DNA of 64,000 nucleotides from Camelus ferus. Lineage: Eukaryota. The translations under genes were made by a program, and so were the position numbers. Below, piece after piece: positions 18,191 through 63,454 of this stretch (positions within the stretch are counted from its first letter, which is position 1; the number at the start of each line of letters is the position of its first letter). Under the pieces are notes generated by a model. The model had not been told where the DNA came from and made no database searches. It saw only the letters and a program-made list of their open reading frames with translations. Location of the stretch: contig NC_045696.1 of NCBI RefSeq assembly GCF_009834535.1, positions 1,924,001 to 1,988,000 on the forward strand, written 5' to 3'.

Positions 18191-19901
18191 CATAAATAAG
18201 ACTTACCTGGATTGCTATCGTTTACCTAACATTTACAGAGTGTAAACGTGCAAGAGAGTAGACTCGAAAGCCCCAGGAGGAGCTGGGGACGGCCCCTCGT
18301 CTTTGAATCGTTGCTGCTTGCTCCGGATTGCCTTACACTCAGTCCTCAAAATTGTGTCTAGGCTCTCAGAATGACAGACATGTCTTTTTATGCCCATTGG
18401 CCACTGGGTGCTGTAGGCACTGGACCTGGTGGAACTGGGGGACCTAGGGGACCTGGTAAGCTGTGCTGTGGACAGGGGATCTGCGGCCCATGGGGCCCAC
18501 CTGGAAAGCCCAAACCACCACCACACAACCCCAATCTTCTGCCCTCTCCTCCTTGCCTCCCGCAGTTCCTTCTGCTACCAGAGGGCCTGCCTGCCTCAGG
18601 GCCTTTGCGCATGCTGCTCTCCTAATGGGCTCCTCTCCAGGGGTCGGCAGGCACTGCCCCTCTTCAGTTGGTTTCTGTTCAGAGGAGCCCCCTGCACCTG
18701 CTCTCCCAGCCCCACTGCACTCTGCGCCACACGCTGCGAATCTGCCTCAGGCCGTGAGCTCTGGACTCCGTCCTCTCTACCCTGCATCCCCAGCACCCAG
18801 AACTGCACCTGCCCTATAGCCATCACTGCCAGCACCTGTCCAAGGATGAGGGCCTGCCCTCGCTGCCGGCCTGGGAGGAAAGTGGCTCCCTCCTGGCCTC
18901 CCCCGACCCCCGCCCAGCTCCATCTCCTCATACTTGGTCTGCGCCGGCCCAGGTGGAATGGTACCTGGGTCCCCTCTACCTCCTGGCTCGGAACACAGAG
19001 CCCGGCAGGGGGCTGCCTCCCTTTCACGGCCAGGGCTGAAGGATGGGGTGAAGGAGGGAATGACCACCTATTTACAGGGAACAAGGAACCAGGCTGGACG
19101 GGAGGCGTCGGGTGGGCGGAGCAGGCCCCCAGGGAGGGAGGCAGTGGGCTCACAGAGAAGGACGACAGGCGCCTTCTGTCCCGCAGGGGCTGCGGAGTCA
19201 GAGCCCACTGCCCACGCTGTGCTCAGGCCCCAGGGCGGGATGCGGGCCCCGGGGCAGGAGGGAATCGGGTGGTCCTGGCCTGTCCCTGGGGGCCACCTGG
19301 AGCCCTGCTTCTGTGGGAGCCGTGCCTGAAGCCTCTTCCACGGTCCAGGTGGGACGGGCACTCCGTCAGTGCAGGCTCAGGGAGGGCCATGGACAGAAGC
19401 AGACTGGGGTCCCCAGGGACATTCCAGGTGCTTTCAGGAGACCCATCCACGTTTCTCTGCCCCCTACACGCACAGGGACTCAGAAAGCCCCACAGACGGG
19501 GTCACGGGGGTTGCTTTCCAGAGAAGCAGGTCCCAAGTCTACACTTGGACCATGTCCCTCCAAATACATGGCTCCCGGCAAAGCAAACAGAGCCAGACCA
19601 GGCGCTGCAGCATGTCCTCTGTCCTCCGGCCCGACTCGAGCCCTTGCAACCGACTCGCCCTGGTGGGCAAATGCCTGTCCTCCCGCCCCTCCGCGCATTT
19701 TCAGTTGGGGGGCCTTCCCCGCCTGGCCCGGGGACGCAGTGGGCAGGGGGACCCCGCCCCTGTCCCCTGGCAGCCCACCACCCCTCCTCCTCCAGGAAAG
19801 CCCCTCAGCCTACAGGTGCCCTAACACGGGGCATCAGGTCACCTGCTAGGCCTCAGCCAGAGGGAGGGGGTTGGGCCCCTATTTTCAAGAACTGCTGCGC
19901 A

Positions 19902-20032
19902 GGGAGCAGTATAGCTCAAGCGGCAGAACACATGCTTAGTGTTCATGAGGCCCTGGGTTCAGCCCCCGGTACCTCCTCTAAAATAAATAAATAAGCCTAA
20001 TTACCTCCCCTCAACAACAAAAGAAAAAAAAA
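19902..20032 (+). mobile_element. tRNA-derived SINE (camelid Vic-1-like)
   Basis: A-box tatagctcaagcgg, B-box gggttcagccccc, A-rich tail. Degenerate TSD aactgctgcgcagg / aattgctgtgcagg. Confidence 0.88.
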
Positions 20033-31655: not shown

Positions 31656-32564
31656 TCACCTGCCTGCTTACCTGTGACAAGTAAGGACCGTGGAGTGCAT
31701 CTGGGAGAAGCAGCCCTGCCCCCCGGCCCAGGCTCACCGACACACATCCTCAGCAGGTGCAGACTTGCTTTTTCAGAGGAAGAAACATGAACAAACTGAA
31801 CAGAGACAGTAATCAAAGACACAGTAGAAGAAAGTTTCTTGAACTGAAGACCAATCTCAATCTATTTAACAAAAAGTCTTGTTGGTACCAAACAAAATTA
31901 ATGACAATCTGGTGAGAATCTTCAAGTAGAAAACATGAAAGGAAGACACTCAGAGTGGGGCAAAAGAGTTCTGTGCAAACACCAGGAGACTACAGAGGGC
32001 GGCCACAGCGCCACAGCTCCAGACCACGACGTCTGTACCCAGCCAGGTCATTCTGCACATGTACAGGCAGCAGGAAAAAAATTCTCAGATACAGGGGGTT
32101 CAGAAATTGTACTGAGAACATATCCTACCCGAAAAACCAACTCAAATAATTATCTGGGCAAATGAGCAGTGAGTCAAAATGAAGACCCACAAACAGTGAT
32201 GGGCAGACAGGGGAATCAAGGTGATTGACACTAGAATTAAGTTCAAGTAGGTTATGTGAATAAAACATGAATGTTACAAAAGACCTACTGCTAAAGTTAA
32301 ACCTCTTCCACCTTATCAGGAACAATGGCCCTTCAGGGGTCACACTTCATAGCAGACAGGGGTGACATGGCAGGTAAGGCCTGGAAGAGGTGTGGAGGCC
32401 ATCACATCCAGAGCCAGTACCAGACTCTCAGGGTCCCCTGCCCACCCCAGAGCCCTTTGGTGTAGCTTACCTAAGAAAGAGCACTGGTCCCCATCCCACC
32501 CCCATGACCTACCACATCCCTCCACACCTTCCTGTGGATTTGCAGCTTCTTATAACATTCCCTG

Positions 32565-36710: not shown

Positions 36711-38573
36711 GACTACACTCCAAACACAGACGTGTGGACTTCAAGACACGCCTTTCCACTGCTGTCAGCATGTGCGATGTTCTTTCTGATGCACTTTGTG
36801 GGGAATTTGGAAAGTACAGAAGAACACAGAGAAGAACCCAAAAACCACCCTCTTTGTGGCCAGCAACCGCCAGCTGTGAGTGTCGCTCCCAAGCTCTAGA
36901 GAGGGGCCAGTTATACTAAAGATCTAACCAAGACGTTGACCGTGTCCATGAGGACAGGAATCCTGCTAAATCCGACCCAGAATCGGCATTCACTTTCTGC
37001 CCTGGGACCTACCCCAGCACCACAAGCTGGGGACAGAGCAGGCGGGGCTGGGGGGTCCCTGACTGAGGAGCAGAGCGGGCTGAGGGTCGCAGTGGGTGGG
37101 GACAGAGGAGGGGATGGGGTGGGGGTGGGTGGTCGGTGGCCCTGTTGGTGGCTGTGTTCCCAGTTGAGGGTGGGGACGGGCTTGGGGTCTGTAGCTTGTG
37201 GTTCAATTGCTTGGTCTATAGGCAGGTGCCCCACCAGGATCCTGGCCCTCCTTCTCCTCGCTGCAGGCTCCTGCTAACCCAGGAGCAGCTCCCTAGACCC
37301 CAGGAGGGAGCTTCAGGCCCCTCGGGTGGGGGCGCATCAGCAAGGAAGGCTCAGCGGTCTCCTACGGGCCTGTCTCCTCCCTAACTGCCCTGAAGCAAGA
37401 ACGGGAAAGCCCTTCCCGGCTCGCACCCTCTTGCCCAGCCCTGGGCGCCAGCAAGGATGGAGACCCCTCGGAAAGGGCTCAGCTCCCCGTCAGACTCCTC
37501 CACCTGCCGGCATGGTCATGCAACACCTCCCTTTGTCAGACAGCGACCCCAGGACTGCACCTGCCCAAAGGGCAGCCCCCCGGAATCCCAGCATCCAGAC
37601 CCCACTCCCCGGCATTTCTGGCTCACAAGACCTTACACCATTTTGCCATTTTTAAACAACATACAATAAAGACATGAGTTTAGGTTTTAAAAAAAGTGAA
37701 TTTCCCACCTGCATCTCATCACAGATGAACTTGATAACATTCAAATATAAAAAAGCCAGTGTCAGCCTCCACTTGTCCTGCGATATACGTTGCTCATGTC
37801 ACTTACACAAGACAACGTATTTCGAAAGTGATGATGTTTTTAACGCACTGCCATGGATTTGATTTGGGGACGAACTTTCTTGGAAACATGGGTGATGCTT
37901 AACTCCGTGTCTCAGTCACGGGCACCAGGCCCACCGTCCTCAGCCGCGAGCGCCACACTGAGAAGTCCCCCGGCCGGTTCCGTCAGGTCCAAGTGCTGCC
38001 TCCAGGTGCAAACATGACCTCCAGCAGGCTCGGGCGCTCTTCTCAGCAGAAAGTGGGGCCGGAGGTCTTCAGGAGAAAGGCACCCGTGGACCATGCCTGG
38101 CCCAGACCCCCCGCCCCGGTGCCGGCTCCCAGGGACAGCCAGGTTCTCAGGGAGAACTCCAACCTTTCCCAGAGACGCCGATCTGCAGAACCACCGAGTT
38201 CCTGTCGATGGCAAGTGAATTTACACCTCTGTCCTCGGTGGATGGTCTCTGTGGAGGAAAAAGGTACAAATGTCTGATGTTTCTCAACAAGTCTGCATGT
38301 GTGTAACACATCTAAACCAGTAAAGCTGTGTGGACACGCATCCCAGGACGGAAGGACAGGAGAGACGTGGGCCCAGTGGAGGGGACAGGCTGGGCAGGTG
38401 GACACGGGTGAGAACGTGACCTCCCGCAGGCTTTTCTGAGCCAGCTTTGGGGCCCACCGAGGCCCCCCAGATCGCCCCAGGTTTAAAGGAATGTCATCTG
38501 TCCAAATCCTTCTCTATGTCAGTCATTTTGCAGAAATCAAGATGATGTTGCCCTAAAAACTAGGCTCCTTTCT

Positions 38574-39075
38574 TGGCCCAGTGGGAACCTGCCTGGGGGA
38601 AGGCTGGGCGCCCGGAGAGGTCACATCCACGTCCCCTGGACACTGGACCCAGCGGGAGCCTGCCTGGGGGAAGGCTGGGCGCCTGGAGAGGCCACATCCA
38701 CGTCCCCTGGACTCTGGACCCAGCGGGAGCCTGCCTGGGGGAAGGCTGGGCGCCCGGAGAGGTCACATCCATGTCCCCTGGACACTGGACCCAGCGGGAG
38801 CCTGCCTTGGGGAAGGCTGGGCGCCCGCAGAGGCCACATCCACGTCCCCTGGACTCTGGACCCAGCGGGAGCCTGCCTGGGGGAAGGCTGGGCGCCCGGA
38901 GAGGCCACATCCACGTCCCCTGGACACTGGACCCAGCGGGAGCCTGCCTGGGGGAAGGCTGGGCGCCCGGAGAGGCCACATCCACGTCCCCTGGACTCTG
39001 GACCCAGCGGGAGCCTGCCTGGGGGAAGGCTGGGCGCCCGGAGAGGTCACATCCATGCCCCCTGGACTCTGGACC
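38574..39075. repeat. Minisatellite, 71-bp unit, 7 copies
   Basis: The unit start ggacc recurs at 38645, 38716, 38787, 38858, 38929, 39000 and 39071; copies are nearly identical. Confidence 0.97.
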
Positions 39076-40574
39076 GACACCCTCCTCACCTGAGACTTGA
39101 GGCTGGTGTGGCGCTGTGGGCCAGCTGCCCTTGGCCCAGGACGCAAGACCGGCTCTCCCTCGGGCCCGTGCACCCAGCCTGTCGGCTCACCTGCCCTCCA
39201 CCCTCCCGGGTGCCAGGGCTACAGGCACGCGTGGGCGCCCTGCTGCTGGGGGTTGGGGGCAGTGGCAGGCCCACCCACAGCAGGAAAGTGCTGGGGGCCC
39301 TGGAGCAGGGGCCCGGGTGGACGGAGCACAGTGGACCTGCTGTCCACCTGAACCGCCCCCCTCACAGTGACCAGCGGCTGCAGGTTCTACTGGAGGAGGC
39401 TGACCCCAGCCATGCGGAGGAGCCAGCCTGCCCGCACGGCCAGGAGCAGGCAAGCTCAGGCTGCTGTTGGGGTTTTGAGCACTTCACTCAGGTGACAGCC
39501 ACCTTCCAGGCCTGCAGGGACACCAGCTTGGCTCCTGCTGGGTGCCAGGGCACACACTTGGCAGGAAAGGCCGCCCCCGCCCTGGCAGTGCCAGCAGCGT
39601 CTCCGCAAGAACAGCTCACTTCCTGCAGCCCGGCCTGCCTCCGGGCCGGCTCCCGCCTGGAGGAACGGAGGACTGTGAGCAGGGCAAGTCCCCCGGCTGC
39701 TTCCCAGGAAAGTCCCAGCAAAGTCCCGCTCCCTCCCGACATTTGCAAGAGGCTTATTTTAGCCCAAGGAGGAAAGGGGATTTCTTTCTCCCGAGTCCAA
39801 GTCTGACAGGCAGCATCGTGCCGGACACGTGTCCCCGGCCCTGCTGACCGTCATCAGCCCGCCCTGCAGCCACAGAGCCCTGCTTCTGCGGGTGGGGCGG
39901 GGTGGGATGAGGCTGCCCCCGCAGGGGAGGTGAGGGGCCCCCAGCCAGGCCGGCTCCCGCCTCACCCCAGGACTAGGGGACTGCCCACTCCCCCAGGCCA
40001 GTGCCCACACCGCCGCAGGACTGGGGGCACCAGACGCTTTCCCCGAGCACCTTGCGTCACACCTTTCTAGGCCTTCATCTGTGCCCGAGCGGAGCGGCGT
40101 TGCGGCCGCCCCTGGCCAGTCGGAGCCTCTTTCCCGGGACCACAAGCACAGAAGCCTTGTGTGTCGGGTGAGAAGAAGGTGAAATTCCAGAGCAGAGGGG
40201 TGTCCTGCAGTCCAGACAGTGGGGCCCCGTGGGACCCTAGCTGGGGGACAGTGGCCTGGAGGAGGTGGACATGTCCTCAGGAGGCGTGCTGAGGTCTTCC
40301 TCCCTTTTATCAGCTGGTGACCTTGACCTCATGGTGTCTCCTCCCCTCAGCTTCCCCACTCCGGCCGCCTGGTCCCAGACCCTAATTCTAGCCTATTAAG
40401 ACCTGGGACCACCCACATGTGCCACGGTCCTGACATCCCTTCCCTTGGAGGTCTGCTCTCCCTCCTCAGCCCCAAGGAGGTCTGTGCTACTGTTCGCTGA
40501 TCTATATCCAAGCCCAGATTGGCATCCACTCTGCTCCAGGCCCCTCTCTGGGCCTGAGGTGAGCATAGCTTGGA

Positions 40575-57424: not shown

Positions 57425-58330
57425 GGCATTTCTAGAAGAGAAGAACCAAACACAGAGCAGAGGGACTCACAGATGTCAGTCCTGGACAAACTGCTGACAG
57501 AGGCAAAACAGCTGTGAACACAGGTGACCGAGGGTAACTGAGGAGAGTGCCCTCACACCTGGGGAGGAAGGGTTCTCCTCCCCAGACGACAACCACCACC
57601 GTGAGGGTGGGAAGCAGGCCCACGTTAGATGAGGGCTGTTTGCTCATCAAGATGCCGCTGAGTGAAAAGACAAGGTGGGTGAATACGTGCGGTCCGTGTG
57701 ACAAAGGACTTGTAACCCAGACACACAAAACTCCAGTCACGAAAGACAGACAACTGACAGGTAAATGGCCTGAGACTCCAACCGGCATTTCACCAGAGGG
57801 TCCCCAAAGGGCCAGGGAACATACAGAGAGGTGGTGGCCCTCAGCGGACACCAGAGAGAGGCAGAGGAAACCACGGAACCGCCATTCACACCCACCAGGG
57901 TGACGAGAGTGAAAAAAGAAAGCCCGACAGACCCCAGGGCCAGACCCGGCGCCCTGCTGGCCAGGGACACAGGCCGAGCGGACGTGCCCGCAGACGCTGC
58001 CCCGCCCTGCCCCGCCCGGCGGAGGCCGTGCCCGTGGGCCGCGACATCTTGCGGCCAGGCCCCCTGTGCTCGGAGCTGGGATGTGCGCCACAGCCTGGCT
58101 TCCTCCCACAGCCGGGGGGGGGGGGGGCTGAGGCTGGTGACGCTGTTTACTCTGGATCCGAGCGGCAGTTCACACCACGAAATCTCACCAAGGTGCGTGA
58201 TTTTGCATTCTACGTGCACACACGTGTGCTTATCTGTAAAGTGTTTCAGCGAACACGTTTCTCGGGAAGGAGTCGCTGACCTCCGACGGGCCATGCAAAG
58301 GAGAGGTCAATGATGGCCAGCGTGGCCGGT
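57425..58330 (+). mobile_element. Ancient L1M fragment, heavily diverged
   Basis: tgacaaaggacttgtaacccaga, ggcatttcaccagagg, gccattcacacccaccagggtgac follow the L1 ORF2-end order. Confidence 0.65.
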
Positions 58331-58876
58331 GCCTGCAGTGGGGCCATGGGGCTCCTGTCCCAGAGGACCCAGCTCCGTGGGAGACAGGCTACGAGAACGG
58401 AGCCCCCATGGAGGAAGGACCAGAAATGTTGGAGGCCGGCTGATGCACGACACCAGGGGAGCTGGGGGGACCGGCGATTGTGGACCCAGGCTCTACTGCC
58501 CCTCCCACGGGCCCTGCTCTGCCCGCGCTCCTCAGACTCCGGGAACCCACCGCAGGCGTGTCCAGCACGTCACCTGATAACGGCAGAGGGAAGGGGTGCA
58601 GCATGGGGGACCTGTGTCTCTGCGCCCCAGCCACATGGCTCAGCGTGAACTAGGCCATACTAAACAGGCTGCAGTGCTGGCCTGAGCAGCTTTATCAAAA
58701 CCAGACAAAAACACAGTCGTACCATGCGTCCAGGGCACTGCACTTCCAGGGCACCATCCCGGGTCACGGAGGACAGACTGGGGGGCTGCGTTGTGATGGA
58801 CGAAGCACCCCACCGTGCTTTCTCCCGGAACAGAAGCCACACACTGAGGAAAGCGCCAGCCAACGAGCTGCCACAC

Positions 58877-58882
58877 TTTATT
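58877..58882 (-). terminator. Polyadenylation signal for GATD3
   Basis: tttatt on + (AATAAA on -), ~575 nt past the stop codon. Confidence 0.7.
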
Positions 58883-59456
58883 GCTCCTCCTGCACCATCT
58901 CCCATCCGCCCAGCTCGGGGCCCGGGGCCAACTGCACTGCCCCACCTGCAGGCCGACACACGGCTGAGTGCCCACCCCTAACATGAGAAGCTTCGTGCAT
59001 ATTACTAGTCGGCCAGTCTCAGGCCTGAAACGGGGCTGCCCGAGTCTATCTGGGGGAGGGGCTCATTCTCACCAGCCAAAGGGCACGCCTGCTCCACAAA
59101 GCCCGACTGTCCTGATCAGCTCGTATCTGCTCCAGATCAGAGCATCTTTAACTAGCGATAATCGTGGTACTTTGGTTTCCTGATTATTAGGGCTGCAGGG
59201 TCACCTCTCTCTACCTGAGGTTCCTGCTGAAAAGCAGACTTGATTTCAATTCTGAGGCTGCCTCTGATCCAGTGGCCACTGCCCGCCACCCTCCCCACCA
59301 GGAGGAAAGGCCTCACGCTGTCTGCCCCTGACCCATGTGGCGCCAGCTCCCTCTTTAGAAAGAAAACACACAGATTTAAGCAGAGAAATAAAGTCCTGCC
59401 CCTCCCAAGCTGAGAGGGGAGCCATCGGCCGGGGGCGAGCTGGCCCGGCGGTGGCC

Positions 59457-59585
59457 TCACTTCCGGGCGAGCTCCAGCACCTCCCTCACCATGGCCCCGG
59501 TCCCGTCGTAGACGTGGTGCAGCGCAGTGTCGCACATGAAGGCCGGCGTGGTGACCACCTTGTTCTTCCGGTCCACGTGAGCTTC
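59457..59585 (-). CDS. GATD3: GATD3 (C21orf33/ES1 homolog) last coding exon
   Basis: 129 nt: [42 protein letters not shown]; recalled human [42 protein letters not shown]. Not called by the ORF track. Confidence 0.95.
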
Positions 59586-60733
59586 GTGCACACGAGTTAG
59601 GGAAACCCATCCTGCAGCGAGAGGGTCTGGCGGAAAGCAGCCCCAGCCACCGCCACAGACGTGTCCCCCGCCCCGCCGTCACCAGGAAGGGTCTTTCTGC
59701 ACCGCCTGCACTACCTCCAGGAGAGCTGGTAACAGGTGTCCCGGCAGCAGGCACAGGGACCAGCACCCCACAGAGCCGGGCCAGGTGCCAGCACTGCCAG
59801 GAGCCCACAACCCTGAAGGTGGAGGCAGCCCCGCATCCTTCAGATCAAGAAGCCACACTTAGCCTGTGTGAGCGCCTGCCACGACCACCATGGGCAGCTC
59901 GACCTGGGACCCACCCTTGACCCCATCAGGCTCCTGCCCCACATCACCCACACCCGGCCTCACCTCCACCCTCAGACCCGCTCCCTGGACTCATGCCAAA
60001 GCCCCCAGGGCTGGCCACCCTACACTGAAGGGAGGTGGACACTTACACCTGAAACCGCCCGCAAGGAGACACACACCCTAGGAGAGCGAGCCCCCTTCGG
60101 ACAGATGCCCTTTGGGACAGACACCCAGAGGGTAACAGGCTGGCCTCCAGGACCTCCTCAGGCAGTGTGCTGCTCTGTCCCGACTTCCGCCACATGGAGA
60201 CCCTCTGCGTCCAGGTGCGGACCAGGACGGTGGTTAGCCTGTGGCCTGAGGCTCTCCAAGCCCACAGATCGCTGCCCCAGTACCCTGGCACCCTCAGTCC
60301 ACCACCTCCCAACACAGAAGACCCACTCACGGGACAGAGGTGATGAGGCTGCCTGGCGCAGCAATCCATCCACATCACCCAGGGAACTTCTCCCAAATAA
60401 AGACAGGAAGCCCCCCATCCCCCAAACTCCTTCCACCCTGCCAAGGGGCACTCCCTCTCCCTCCACCTCCAGGCAGCCCCCCAGCCTCTACACCACAGGG
60501 TCATCCCCCTCAGGCCCAAGGCTGTCTCCTTGCCCAACTGAACGTACTCTGGGCCTGGGGTGTGCTGAGCTCAGCCAGCGTCACTGCGGGGACTTGGGAA
60601 CTCAGCATGAGACGATGGAGGCGTCACCACCTCGGGTACTACGCCCCATCACGCACACGCTCTGGGCACCCCCTGCAGGGCAGCACGGAGGTGCCAGGGG
60701 TCCCCCATGCCGCTCTGGATGCTGGAAGGATAT
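59586..60733 (-). other. GATD3: U12-type (minor spliceosome) AT-AC intron, phase 0, 1148 nt
   Basis: 5' end ATATCCTTC, branch site TTCCCTAAC (59604-59596), 3' end gtgcAC. The join gives in-frame KEVT|EAHV. Confidence 0.93.
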
Positions 60734-60890
60734 GGTCACTTCCTTCACACAGTGCTTGGCGCCCAGGGCTTTGATGGCCTCTGCAGTCCCGGCGTATGGC
60801 CACCTGCCGCCTTCCTCCTGCTCGTGGCCCACGGTGACCTCGACGCCGCTCAGCACTTTGGCCGCGAGGACAGGGGCGATGCAGCACAAG
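60734..60890 (-). CDS. GATD3: GATD3 penultimate coding exon (nucleophile-elbow GLCCIAP)
   Basis: Acceptor ttcacctttcag. 157 nt: (G)[52 protein letters not shown]. Confidence 0.96.
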
Positions 60891-63361
60891 CTGAAAGGTG
60901 AACAGAAGAGTGTCAGCTCAGGCTTGTGCGTGTGGACATCAGGCTGGGGCATGGCAAGGCCACTCGGACAACACGGCTGATCTGGAAAAGGGGCACTACC
61001 CTAGTGCCATGGGGGCGGAGGACAGCTCTGAGGGCTGGAGGCTGACCCCCGACCCCGGGATGCCCGCAGCAGTGGTGATGGTGGAGCTGGGGGAGCCTCT
61101 GGGCACCCGGTGCCGGCGGGGCAGCCATGGAGGGAGGCTAGCTGAGCCCAGCTGCTGGATGCGCACCAGGAACCTGATGTGGTGTCCAGAACGGGGAGGC
61201 TGACTTAAGAGAGGAGGCCACAGATGGCCGAGTTGTCTTTGGCCCCAGTTTGAGGGTCACTGGTCACGTGGAAGCAGAGAAGCACAGCTGTAGGGACTGG
61301 ACGGGGGCGCGAGAGCCCAGGGAGCTCGACCCTGCAGAGCACTGAGCTCTCCCCTCCCCACAGGCAGGCTGTCCCGGGGCCCTGAGCCCTGCAAGTTCAC
61401 ACTGGACGCCTGTCCCCAGGGTTCCTCCGAGGACCTGCTCTTCACCAGGGGGTCTCCAGACCGGAAGATCATGAGACCATCGGTTTAGCCAAAACCAAGG
61501 CCTCCGGGAGCCGAGGGCCCACCAGTGTCCTGTCCCCAAGAGGACACACGGGACATTAGCCACAGCAGCACCAGGCCAGGCTGGCCCGTCATGCACCTGT
61601 CAGGGACGGCCCCCTCCCCAGGGGGGCTGCACCCCTGCCTCCTGGTTCTGGTTCTCTGTATTGCCTTCAAAGGCCCCATGTCCAAACTGCTGTAACGAAC
61701 TGGAATAAAACATCATACAAATGTGTTTACACACTTGCTACACGTCGTGACACCTGAACAACCTCTGCTTAGGAACCTGAGATAAACCTCTTCAGACCCA
61801 AATGGGTGGGACATCACTGGAACTGACACCTTGGGAGCCTGCTGGGTCGTGAGGTTCCATAGGCGCCCAACGGGGGGTGGGCGACCTCCAAAGATGAAGG
61901 CCATACCATGAGCCTCCAGTCTGGCCATTCAGGCTGCCCGGCCGTCTCTGGCTGTGAACACCAACGCTCCCGCGCTGGGGGAGGGACGCACCAGGCAGGT
62001 GGCAGAGCCATGGAACCCCACGCTCCGTCTGTGCGGTGGAGTGGTGGGACGGCTCAGTGCACCTGGCCTGGGAAGGGGGCCTGCCAGAGGCGGGATAATG
62101 CTACTGCTGCTGGAAAGAGAAGGCCGAGCAAAGCGCTGCAGGAGGGGCTGAACAGGGCCCTAACGACACAGGGCGGCGGGTACGCGCAGTGTCCCCATCC
62201 TGCGCCCCACCCAGGGGAGCGGGCTGCTCTCCATCTGTGCAATCGAGTGGGCAGGATGCCCGCAGTGAGGGGGCCAGTCTGCTCAGCATCTGTCCTGTCT
62301 GTCATGTTGCTGAATCCACCACAGAGGGCGGGCACTGGGGCCCTCCCTGGTGCTCGCCTGCATGAACAAGTGCTGCCCCCATGAGGCGTCCCAGGAGGCG
62401 ACCTCCCTCCCTACCTCCCTGGGCACCAGCGCCTCCGTACCCAGGGGGATGGAGAGAGAAGCGGGAGGTGCGCCTGCAGGCTGACCGGGCAGGGCCCCCA
62501 GTGGTGACAGTGGGTCCATGAAGGACGCTGACCCCTGGTGGGGCCCATCCCCTCCAGTCTCTGTGCCCCAGTCAGACTGGTAACCTCGTTCCTTTCCAGT
62601 CGGCTGATAAAAGGCAGCGAGCCACCTGGCGGAGGGCCTGTTCACCACGGTGCTGCTGAGAGGCCTCCCCAGCCAGGGACGACCCCAAGCCTGCAGCCAC
62701 TTGCTCCAGCACCGCCCTGGGACGCTCAAGTCAGAGCGGGACGAGGAGCCCCCGCTGGACGCTGGTGGGAAGGGCCACCGGACCAGCAGGTCTGACAGCG
62801 GAGTCGCCATCACTTGTCTCCGGGGCCTCCGGGTGTGGTTACGGCCGACCTCGCCAGGCCAAGGACAGGGGTCCAGGCGTGGGCTGTGGCTGGGCCTGTG
62901 ATGTGGCCCAGCGTGCGGCCGCCACAGAAGCCAGTCCTGGGGCGGCAGAGAAGGATCGGCCCGTGGCCCCTGGGGAAAGCAACCGAGAGCCACGGGTGTA
63001 GGAGACGATGCCCGCGGCAGCGGTGGCAGAGCACCGACGGGGCAGCAGCTGAGGGGCCGCTCCGAGCCGCATCAGGAAGGCGGCAGCCAGGCGCGGGCCA
63101 GGCAGGGACGGATACTCTGCTGGACGCTGACAGAACTGCCCCCCGCCCCCAACTAGGTCATCAGGAGAAATTACTATAACCACACAACCGCAGGATTTTC
63201 AGGGCTGGAAGGCACCTGTGACAGCGCATGAAACCCCCTGGGTTGTAACGAGGAAAGGGGCTGAGAGTTTCCGAAAGCACACAGCTCAGAGCAGCAGCTC
63301 CCACAGCGTGCCCGGCCGCCGCCCCCGCCCGCCCTGCAGGCCGTGCGGCGCACGCACCCAC

Positions 63362-63454
63362 CCGATGGGCTTCCCGGCCTGGTGGAACTCCTTCAGGACG
63401 CGCTCCACGTCTCGGTCCACCCGGCAGTCTTTCCCGTCCACGGCGAACGTGCTC
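63362..63454 (-). CDS. GATD3: GATD3 internal coding exon (upstream exons lie beyond the window)
   Basis: Acceptor tcttctctcgtggcag and donor gtgggt. 93 nt, phase 2 to 2: [30 protein letters not shown](G). Confidence 0.95.

Follow-up and report, generated by a model that had tools for sequence, protein, structure and literature searches.

The last intron of the main GATD3 isoform in Camelus ferus is almost certainly a U12-type AT-AC intron orthologous to a catalogued human intron

We analysed a stretch of 64,000 nucleotides of the Camelus ferus genome, hereafter the window, which contains only the last three exons of GATD3; the 5' part of the gene lies beyond it. Features are collected in Table 1, and the exon numbers 5 to 7 follow from human intron 6, from which they were inferred. 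For the window at large, an Rfam search of positions 1-63000 retrieved no matches, and a Pfam search with 81 of the 223 long open reading frames gave none above the cut-off and one weak match below it. Stop-free frames of 525 codons (18417-19994) and 439 codons (38487-39806) lie on the plus strand.

Table 1. Features of the 3' part of GATD3 in the window, in order of transcription
Feature	Position	Strand	Basis
GATD3 upstream coding exon (exon 5, human numbering), 93 nt; AG before, GT after	63362..63454	-	sequence
Ordinary U2-type GT-AG intron (intron 5)	60891..63361	-	sequence; pyrimidine fraction 0.88 at -20..-4
GATD3 exon 6, 157 nt, opens with the LCCI motif	60734..60890	-	sequence and homologues
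GATD3 U12-type (minor) AT-AC intron (intron 6), last of the main isoform	59586..60733	-	sequence and human orthologue
U12 5' splice site ATATCCTT, sole copy in the window	60726..60733	-	motif search
Read-through frame on intron retention: 43 codons beginning with ISF, then stop	60602..60733	-	translation; P0004, P0128
Cryptic GT donor (+91), used in the Camelus GenBank model P0126	60637..60642	-	sequence and model match
Pyrimidine-rich stretch ending CAG, candidate cryptic U2-type acceptor 26 nt upstream of the true 3' end	59612..59632	-	sequence
U12 branch site TTCCCTAAC, As at -13 and -12	59596..59604	-	motif search
3' terminal AC	59586..59587	-	sequence
Exon 7, coding part, 42 residues and stop	59457..59585	-	sequence and homologues
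AATAAA, likely polyadenylation signal; sole A[AT]TAAA on the minus strand in 57500-61000	58877..58882	-	motif search

Using the 52 residues of exon 6 as query, we retrieved 332 protein matches among 411 candidates. The best 120 of these 332 were GATD3/ES1 proteins where they were named, and exon 6 shared 80-98% identity with these best 120 vertebrate GATD3 matches. The cysteine matching the human catalytic C176, counted on the 268-aa human record P0130, is the second residue of exon 6 and part of its LCCI motif. Of the 274 residues of a camelid GATD3 protein (P0003), 47-272 aligned with structures of bacterial ElbB/SCRP-27A (E 4e-54), an alignment that spans the splice junction and the exon 7 residues up to the C-terminus. 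Against Pfam DJ-1_PfpI (PF01965), P0003 scored 25.4 bits for a curated cut-off of 26.6 (E 1.4e-5), and the two window exons alone gave no Pfam matches. Judged by its orthology to named GATD3 proteins, the camel protein belongs to the GATD3/ES1/ElbB family and is DJ-1/PfpI-like. Mammalian GATD3A is described, in the part of PMC8935817 available, as a mitochondrial matrix deglycase with C176 as catalytic residue; in camel, the part encoding the targeting sequence is outside the window. Camel exon 7 differs from this family by two uncommon residues: a Tyr at a position that is His in 81% of 81 homologues (from the best 120 of 332), and a Thr at one that is Ile in 95%. The His is present in P0129, another camelid record. 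PMC8935817 also names a possible catalytic His251 in the exon 7 region, a number that does not exactly match the human record.

At the splice-site level, the last GATD3 intron (1148 nt) lies between codons, in phase 0. On the minus strand, exon 6 ends GAA GTG ACC at 60734 and exon 7 starts GAA GCT CAC at 59585; the intron opens with ATATCCTTCC at 60733 and closes with TTTCCCTAAC-TCGTGTGC-AC at 59586. The coordinates, exon flanks and intron ends given in an earlier note on this DNA were all exact. Minor (U12) introns have the consensus RTATCCTT at the 5' splice site and TTCCTTRAC at the branch site. The camel donor matches the full octamer, and the branch site agrees at 8 of 9 positions, with C as the mismatch at position 5; the exact TTCCTTRAC had no occurrence in a motif search of the whole window. 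The earlier note had treated both motifs and the terminal AC as defining the class. This stands in full for the donor and with one mismatch for the branch site, but not for the AC, which is not U12-defining by itself because major-class AT-AC introns exist.

The 8 nt of TCGTGTGC separate the branch 9-mer from the final AC, so that the 9-mer is followed by 10 nt of intron in all, and the branch As fall within the 11-13 nt range typical of U12 introns. These 8 bases are mixed and form no distinct pyrimidine tract, in agreement with the same note, which had reported no such tract and a branch A about 12 nt from the 3' end; we add that a pyrimidine-rich stretch ending in CAG lies further upstream (59612). 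For comparison, the preceding U2 acceptor reaches a pyrimidine fraction of 0.88 at -20..-4, and the same region of intron 6 is 71% pyrimidine, those pyrimidines being the branch site itself. According to the available part of a review, the U11/U12 machinery recognises an extended 5' site together with the branch site, does without a pyrimidine tract, and selects a 3' end some 11-13 nt away from the branch site (PMC3584512). The camel intron shares with U12-type A-type introns, as described in the parts of PMC3584512 and PMC8280824 available, the long 5' site, the 3'-proximal branch site, the lack of a tract and the AT-AC ends; it falls wholly within the described range of the class, with one branch mismatch.

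Some related sequences were also observed. Two ATATCCT heptamers, at 32120 and 33235 on the plus strand, fall short of the full U12 octamer. Repeats in 58700-61000 were short ones only, and one 11-mer alone was tied to splice sites: the sequence spanning the 3' splice site (59580-59590) has an exact copy in the 3' UTR at 58989-58999, a distance of 591 nt downstream, with no branch site preceding it. This copy is probably due to chance, because that 2.3 kb region contains three further exact repeats of 11-12 nt.

Taken singly, each of the two motifs could have arisen by chance. At least one copy of ATATCCTT appeared in 17 of 100 shuffled windows, and the branch site plus AC pattern, which also has one copy in the window, appeared in 35 of 100. 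The donor and the branch/AC pattern within 5 kb on one strand were found together in none of 150 simulated windows, a post hoc figure in that the branch pattern had been loosened, after seeing the site, to admit the observed C. What decides the matter is where the two motifs lie: they coincide exactly with the two ends of the gap that interrupts the protein match.

When exons 6 and 7 were joined at the AT-AC ends, the resulting 94 residues (52+42) showed no differences from camelid RefSeq GATD3 P0003, itself a predicted (XP_) model. Among the best 120 of the 332 homologues, 81 presented the exact AT-AC join; the other 39 comprised 26 that continue into the intron (starting IS), 8 that enter it briefly and then return to exon 7, and 5 otherwise mis-joined. 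By source, 89 of these 120 were gene-model proteins, and the other 31 had been called from assembled contigs, with no gene model involved. Thirteen of the contig-called proteins were spliced upstream, and all 13 had the exact AT-AC join; the remaining 18 were unspliced at both introns, and no alternative junction was found in any of the 31. We regard it as almost certain that this is a real U12-type AT-AC intron, orthologous to the catalogued human GATD3A/C21orf33 intron 6. The stretch also matched sequencing runs (24 listed, 20 containing it, 6 of those recorded as RNA, with shares of 0.73-0.95), which has no bearing on splicing or retention.

An alternative is that the major spliceosome joins these exons at nearby GT-AG sites and that the AT-AC signals are a relic. 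GT and AG sites do surround the junction, and we paired 9 GT donors near the 5' end with 5 of the 7 AG acceptors near the 3' end (those at -107 and -111 were omitted). Although 16 of the 45 pairs stayed in frame, none restored the normal 94 residues, the nearest giving -7 and +8. Each in-frame pair changes the length by at least 7 residues, against a length conserved from mammals to bacterial ElbB. The Camelus GenBank model does use GT 60642 with AG 59612, and two distant homologues (L007 and L008) have non-U12 GT donors at the same intron position; however, such a join occurred in none of the 13 spliced contig-called proteins from the best 120 of 332, and the human tables available in PMC8280824 report no activation of cryptic sites here, the relevant columns containing dashes for this intron. 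Overall, we find splicing at GT-AG sites very improbable, and the AT-AC junction remains our reading.

Gene models, on the other hand, are often wrong here. The earlier note had expected that gene finders limited to GT-AG would mis-model the C-terminus, and the junction indeed deviates in 21 of the 89 gene-model proteins within the best 120 of 332. The prediction is borne out in a close relative, because the GT(60642)-AG(59612) pair adds 39 residues and gives the tail of the Camelus model P0126, of 81 residues instead of 42. Other records vary in their own ways. A primate RefSeq model, P0108, presents ISF in place of EAH at the same length, as if both ends had moved by 9 nt; given the flanks of the human intron, its junction would be CT..AC, that is, GT-AG on the wrong strand, and is likely an aligner artefact. 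Another primate RefSeq model, P0107, reads ISFL and then exon 7 out of frame, which fits a GT at +13 joined to an AG 4 nt inside exon 7; the camel window lacks that GT. Five primate and rodent records (P0012, P0092, P0098, P0109 and P0152) exit exon 7 early to other C-termini. Intron 6 is thus the last intron of the main isoform only, because some records leave exon 7 for other C-termini.

The earlier note had also supposed that the intron was probably already catalogued for the human orthologue, and this was correct: the human intron is tabulated in the supplements of PMC2831892, PMC6800510 and PMC8280824. Among the vertebrate U12 clusters tabulated in 2010, C21orf33 intron 6 appears as AT-AC and as lost in Tetraodon (PMC2831892); chr21:45563244-45564702 (hg19) is classed as U12 (PMC6800510); and GATD3A chr21:44143362-44144820 is classed as AT_AC, with exon flanks as in camel and the branch site TTCCGTAAC (PMC8280824). 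This human branch site is off consensus at position 5 too and scored 0.84 (PMC8280824). The two introns share the gene, codon boundary, phase, first 10 intron bases, AC end, first exon 7 bases, the 12-13 nt distance of the branch As from the intron end and the deviation at branch position 5. They differ in length (1459 nt in human vs. 1148 nt in camel), in the base at branch position 5 (G vs. C), and in the GT at +13, absent from camel.

The human intron responds to defects of the minor spliceosome in the available tables. CENATAC depletion for 48 h raised its retention (PSI) from 0.068 to 0.418 (padj 1.3e-18) and changed GATD3A mRNA by a log2FC of -1.71, roughly a threefold drop; ZRSR2 mutants went from 0.067 to 0.348 (PMC8280824). 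In MVA patient cells, the GATD3A row (0.040 to 0.105) was not significant (padj 0.31), but the GATD3B row, of the same sequence, was (0.0085) (PMC8280824). TALS (RNU4ATAC patient) lymphoblasts shifted from 0.043 to 0.221, whereas TALS fibroblasts shifted only from 0.036 to 0.057 (PMC6800510). At baseline, a few per cent of human transcripts keep the intron, and many more do so under minor-spliceosome impairment (PMC8280824, PMC6800510). For human, published records already cover this intron, the class to which it belongs and how it reacts when the minor spliceosome is defective. Searching main texts for the gene in combination with minor splicing or intron retention, we found no discussion of the intron, which within the literature covered appears in tables. 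A further match for the gene and a U12 term, PMC2654914, is, in the part available, about exon skipping and not GATD3 intron 6.

Another possibility is that retention is a functional outcome in camelids, producing an isoform with a new 43-residue tail. The read-through form is indeed listed as its own isoform in two camelid RefSeq records (P0004 and P0128, with one residue difference each). A retained last intron leaves no downstream exon junction, and junction-dependent decay need not apply. However, the tail displaces 42 conserved residues, and 25 read-through tails from the best 120 of 332, compared without the frameshifted join P0107, have only the donor-encoded ISF in common and range from 9 to 401 aa; set against the 42 conserved residues of exon 7, such tails make a functional retained isoform unlikely. 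Selective retention of the U12 intron was seen in none of the 18 contig-called read-through proteins from the same 120, all of them also unspliced at the upstream intron. In human, mRNA goes down as retention goes up (PMC8280824, available tables). Taken together, we see scarcely any probability that retention serves a function in camelids.

Least probable of all is a U2-type (major) AT-AC intron: 85 major AT-AC introns exist (PMC8280824, part available), the branch site is imperfect and -20..-4 is 71% pyrimidine, but the U12 octamer is complete at the donor, the branch site itself accounts for the pyrimidines, defects of CENATAC, ZRSR2 and U4atac affect the human orthologue (PMC8280824, PMC6800510), and no major AT-AC intron responded to CENATAC depletion in the available part of PMC8280824.

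With the U12-type AT-AC intron as our preferred reading, dependence on the minor spliceosome is published for the human orthologue (CENATAC, ZRSR2, U4atac) and is inferred for camel by analogy. The minor spliceosome would join 60734 to 59585 and yield the 42 C-terminal residues. On failure, the intron would be kept, translation would stop after 43 codons, and a conserved part of the fold would be missing. The retained transcript would mostly be lost rather than used: human mRNA drops with retention, which argues that retained transcripts are lost anyway. It is a speculative and rather doubtful extension that a slow last intron sets the amount of GATD3, that minor-spliceosome activity tunes mitochondrial deglycation, and that GATD3A loss adds to the cell or tissue defects of CENATAC, ZRSR2 and RNU4ATAC disorders.

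Distant homologues also have U12-type signals at this intron position. At the protein level, among 136 further, more distant exon 6 matches, 44 continue with IS[FLCY] and 19 with VS[FLCY], the residues that an unspliced A-type or G-type U12 donor, respectively, would encode; 35 are continuous and 38 unclassified. At the DNA level, we surveyed metagenome loci and kept 80 of 343, several of them near-duplicates, and the 80 are not independent lineages. In 32 of these 80, sequence resembling a donor, beginning with either AT or GT, starts at the codon boundary of the camel intron: [AG]TATCCT exactly at the boundary in 15 (11 AT, 4 GT), GTATCTTT in 13, GTATCCAT in 2 and other GT starts in 2. The rest were continuous (39), had a gap elsewhere (4) or were uninformative (5). 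Seven of the 15 [AG]TATCCT loci also contain exon 7, with branch-like sequence near the intron end, and their introns are AT-AC (L004, L017, L027, L028), AT-AA (L001), AT-AG (L006) and GT-AG (L005). The AT-AG combination is called disfavoured in the available part of the review (PMC3584512). Eight loci (L032, L034, L035, L039, L055, L057, L062 and L068) present the GTATCTTT donor and a U12-like branch about 18-20 nt from a CAG end, vs. the usual 11-13, and are possibly minor-to-major transitional introns.

Four matches (P0271, P0299, P0300 and P0304, compared with P0298) resemble the fish ES1 paralogue and continue with IS[FL] at the intron position. Their similar read-through suggests that the intron is older than that duplication, with both paralogues keeping an A-type intron. 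The available text of PMC8935817 describes the gene as bacterially derived and thought to have been acquired early in eukaryote evolution. We considered whether this gene of bacterial origin had gained its U12 intron recently and rejected the idea, because the gene probably entered early and the donor is common to distant homologues and the fish-ES1-like matches. From these comparisons, GATD3 intron 6 appears to be old.

For annotation, the C-terminus is wrong or unspliced in about a quarter of the sampled gene models, 21 of 89 within the best 120 of 332. Thus, GATD3 records that continue with ISF after exon 6 deserve distrust. For intron evolution, a single position that has AT-AC, AT-AA, AT-AG and GT-AG ends, weakened GT donors or no intron in different homologues compactly illustrates the switching of subtypes and the conversion that the available part of PMC3584512 describes.
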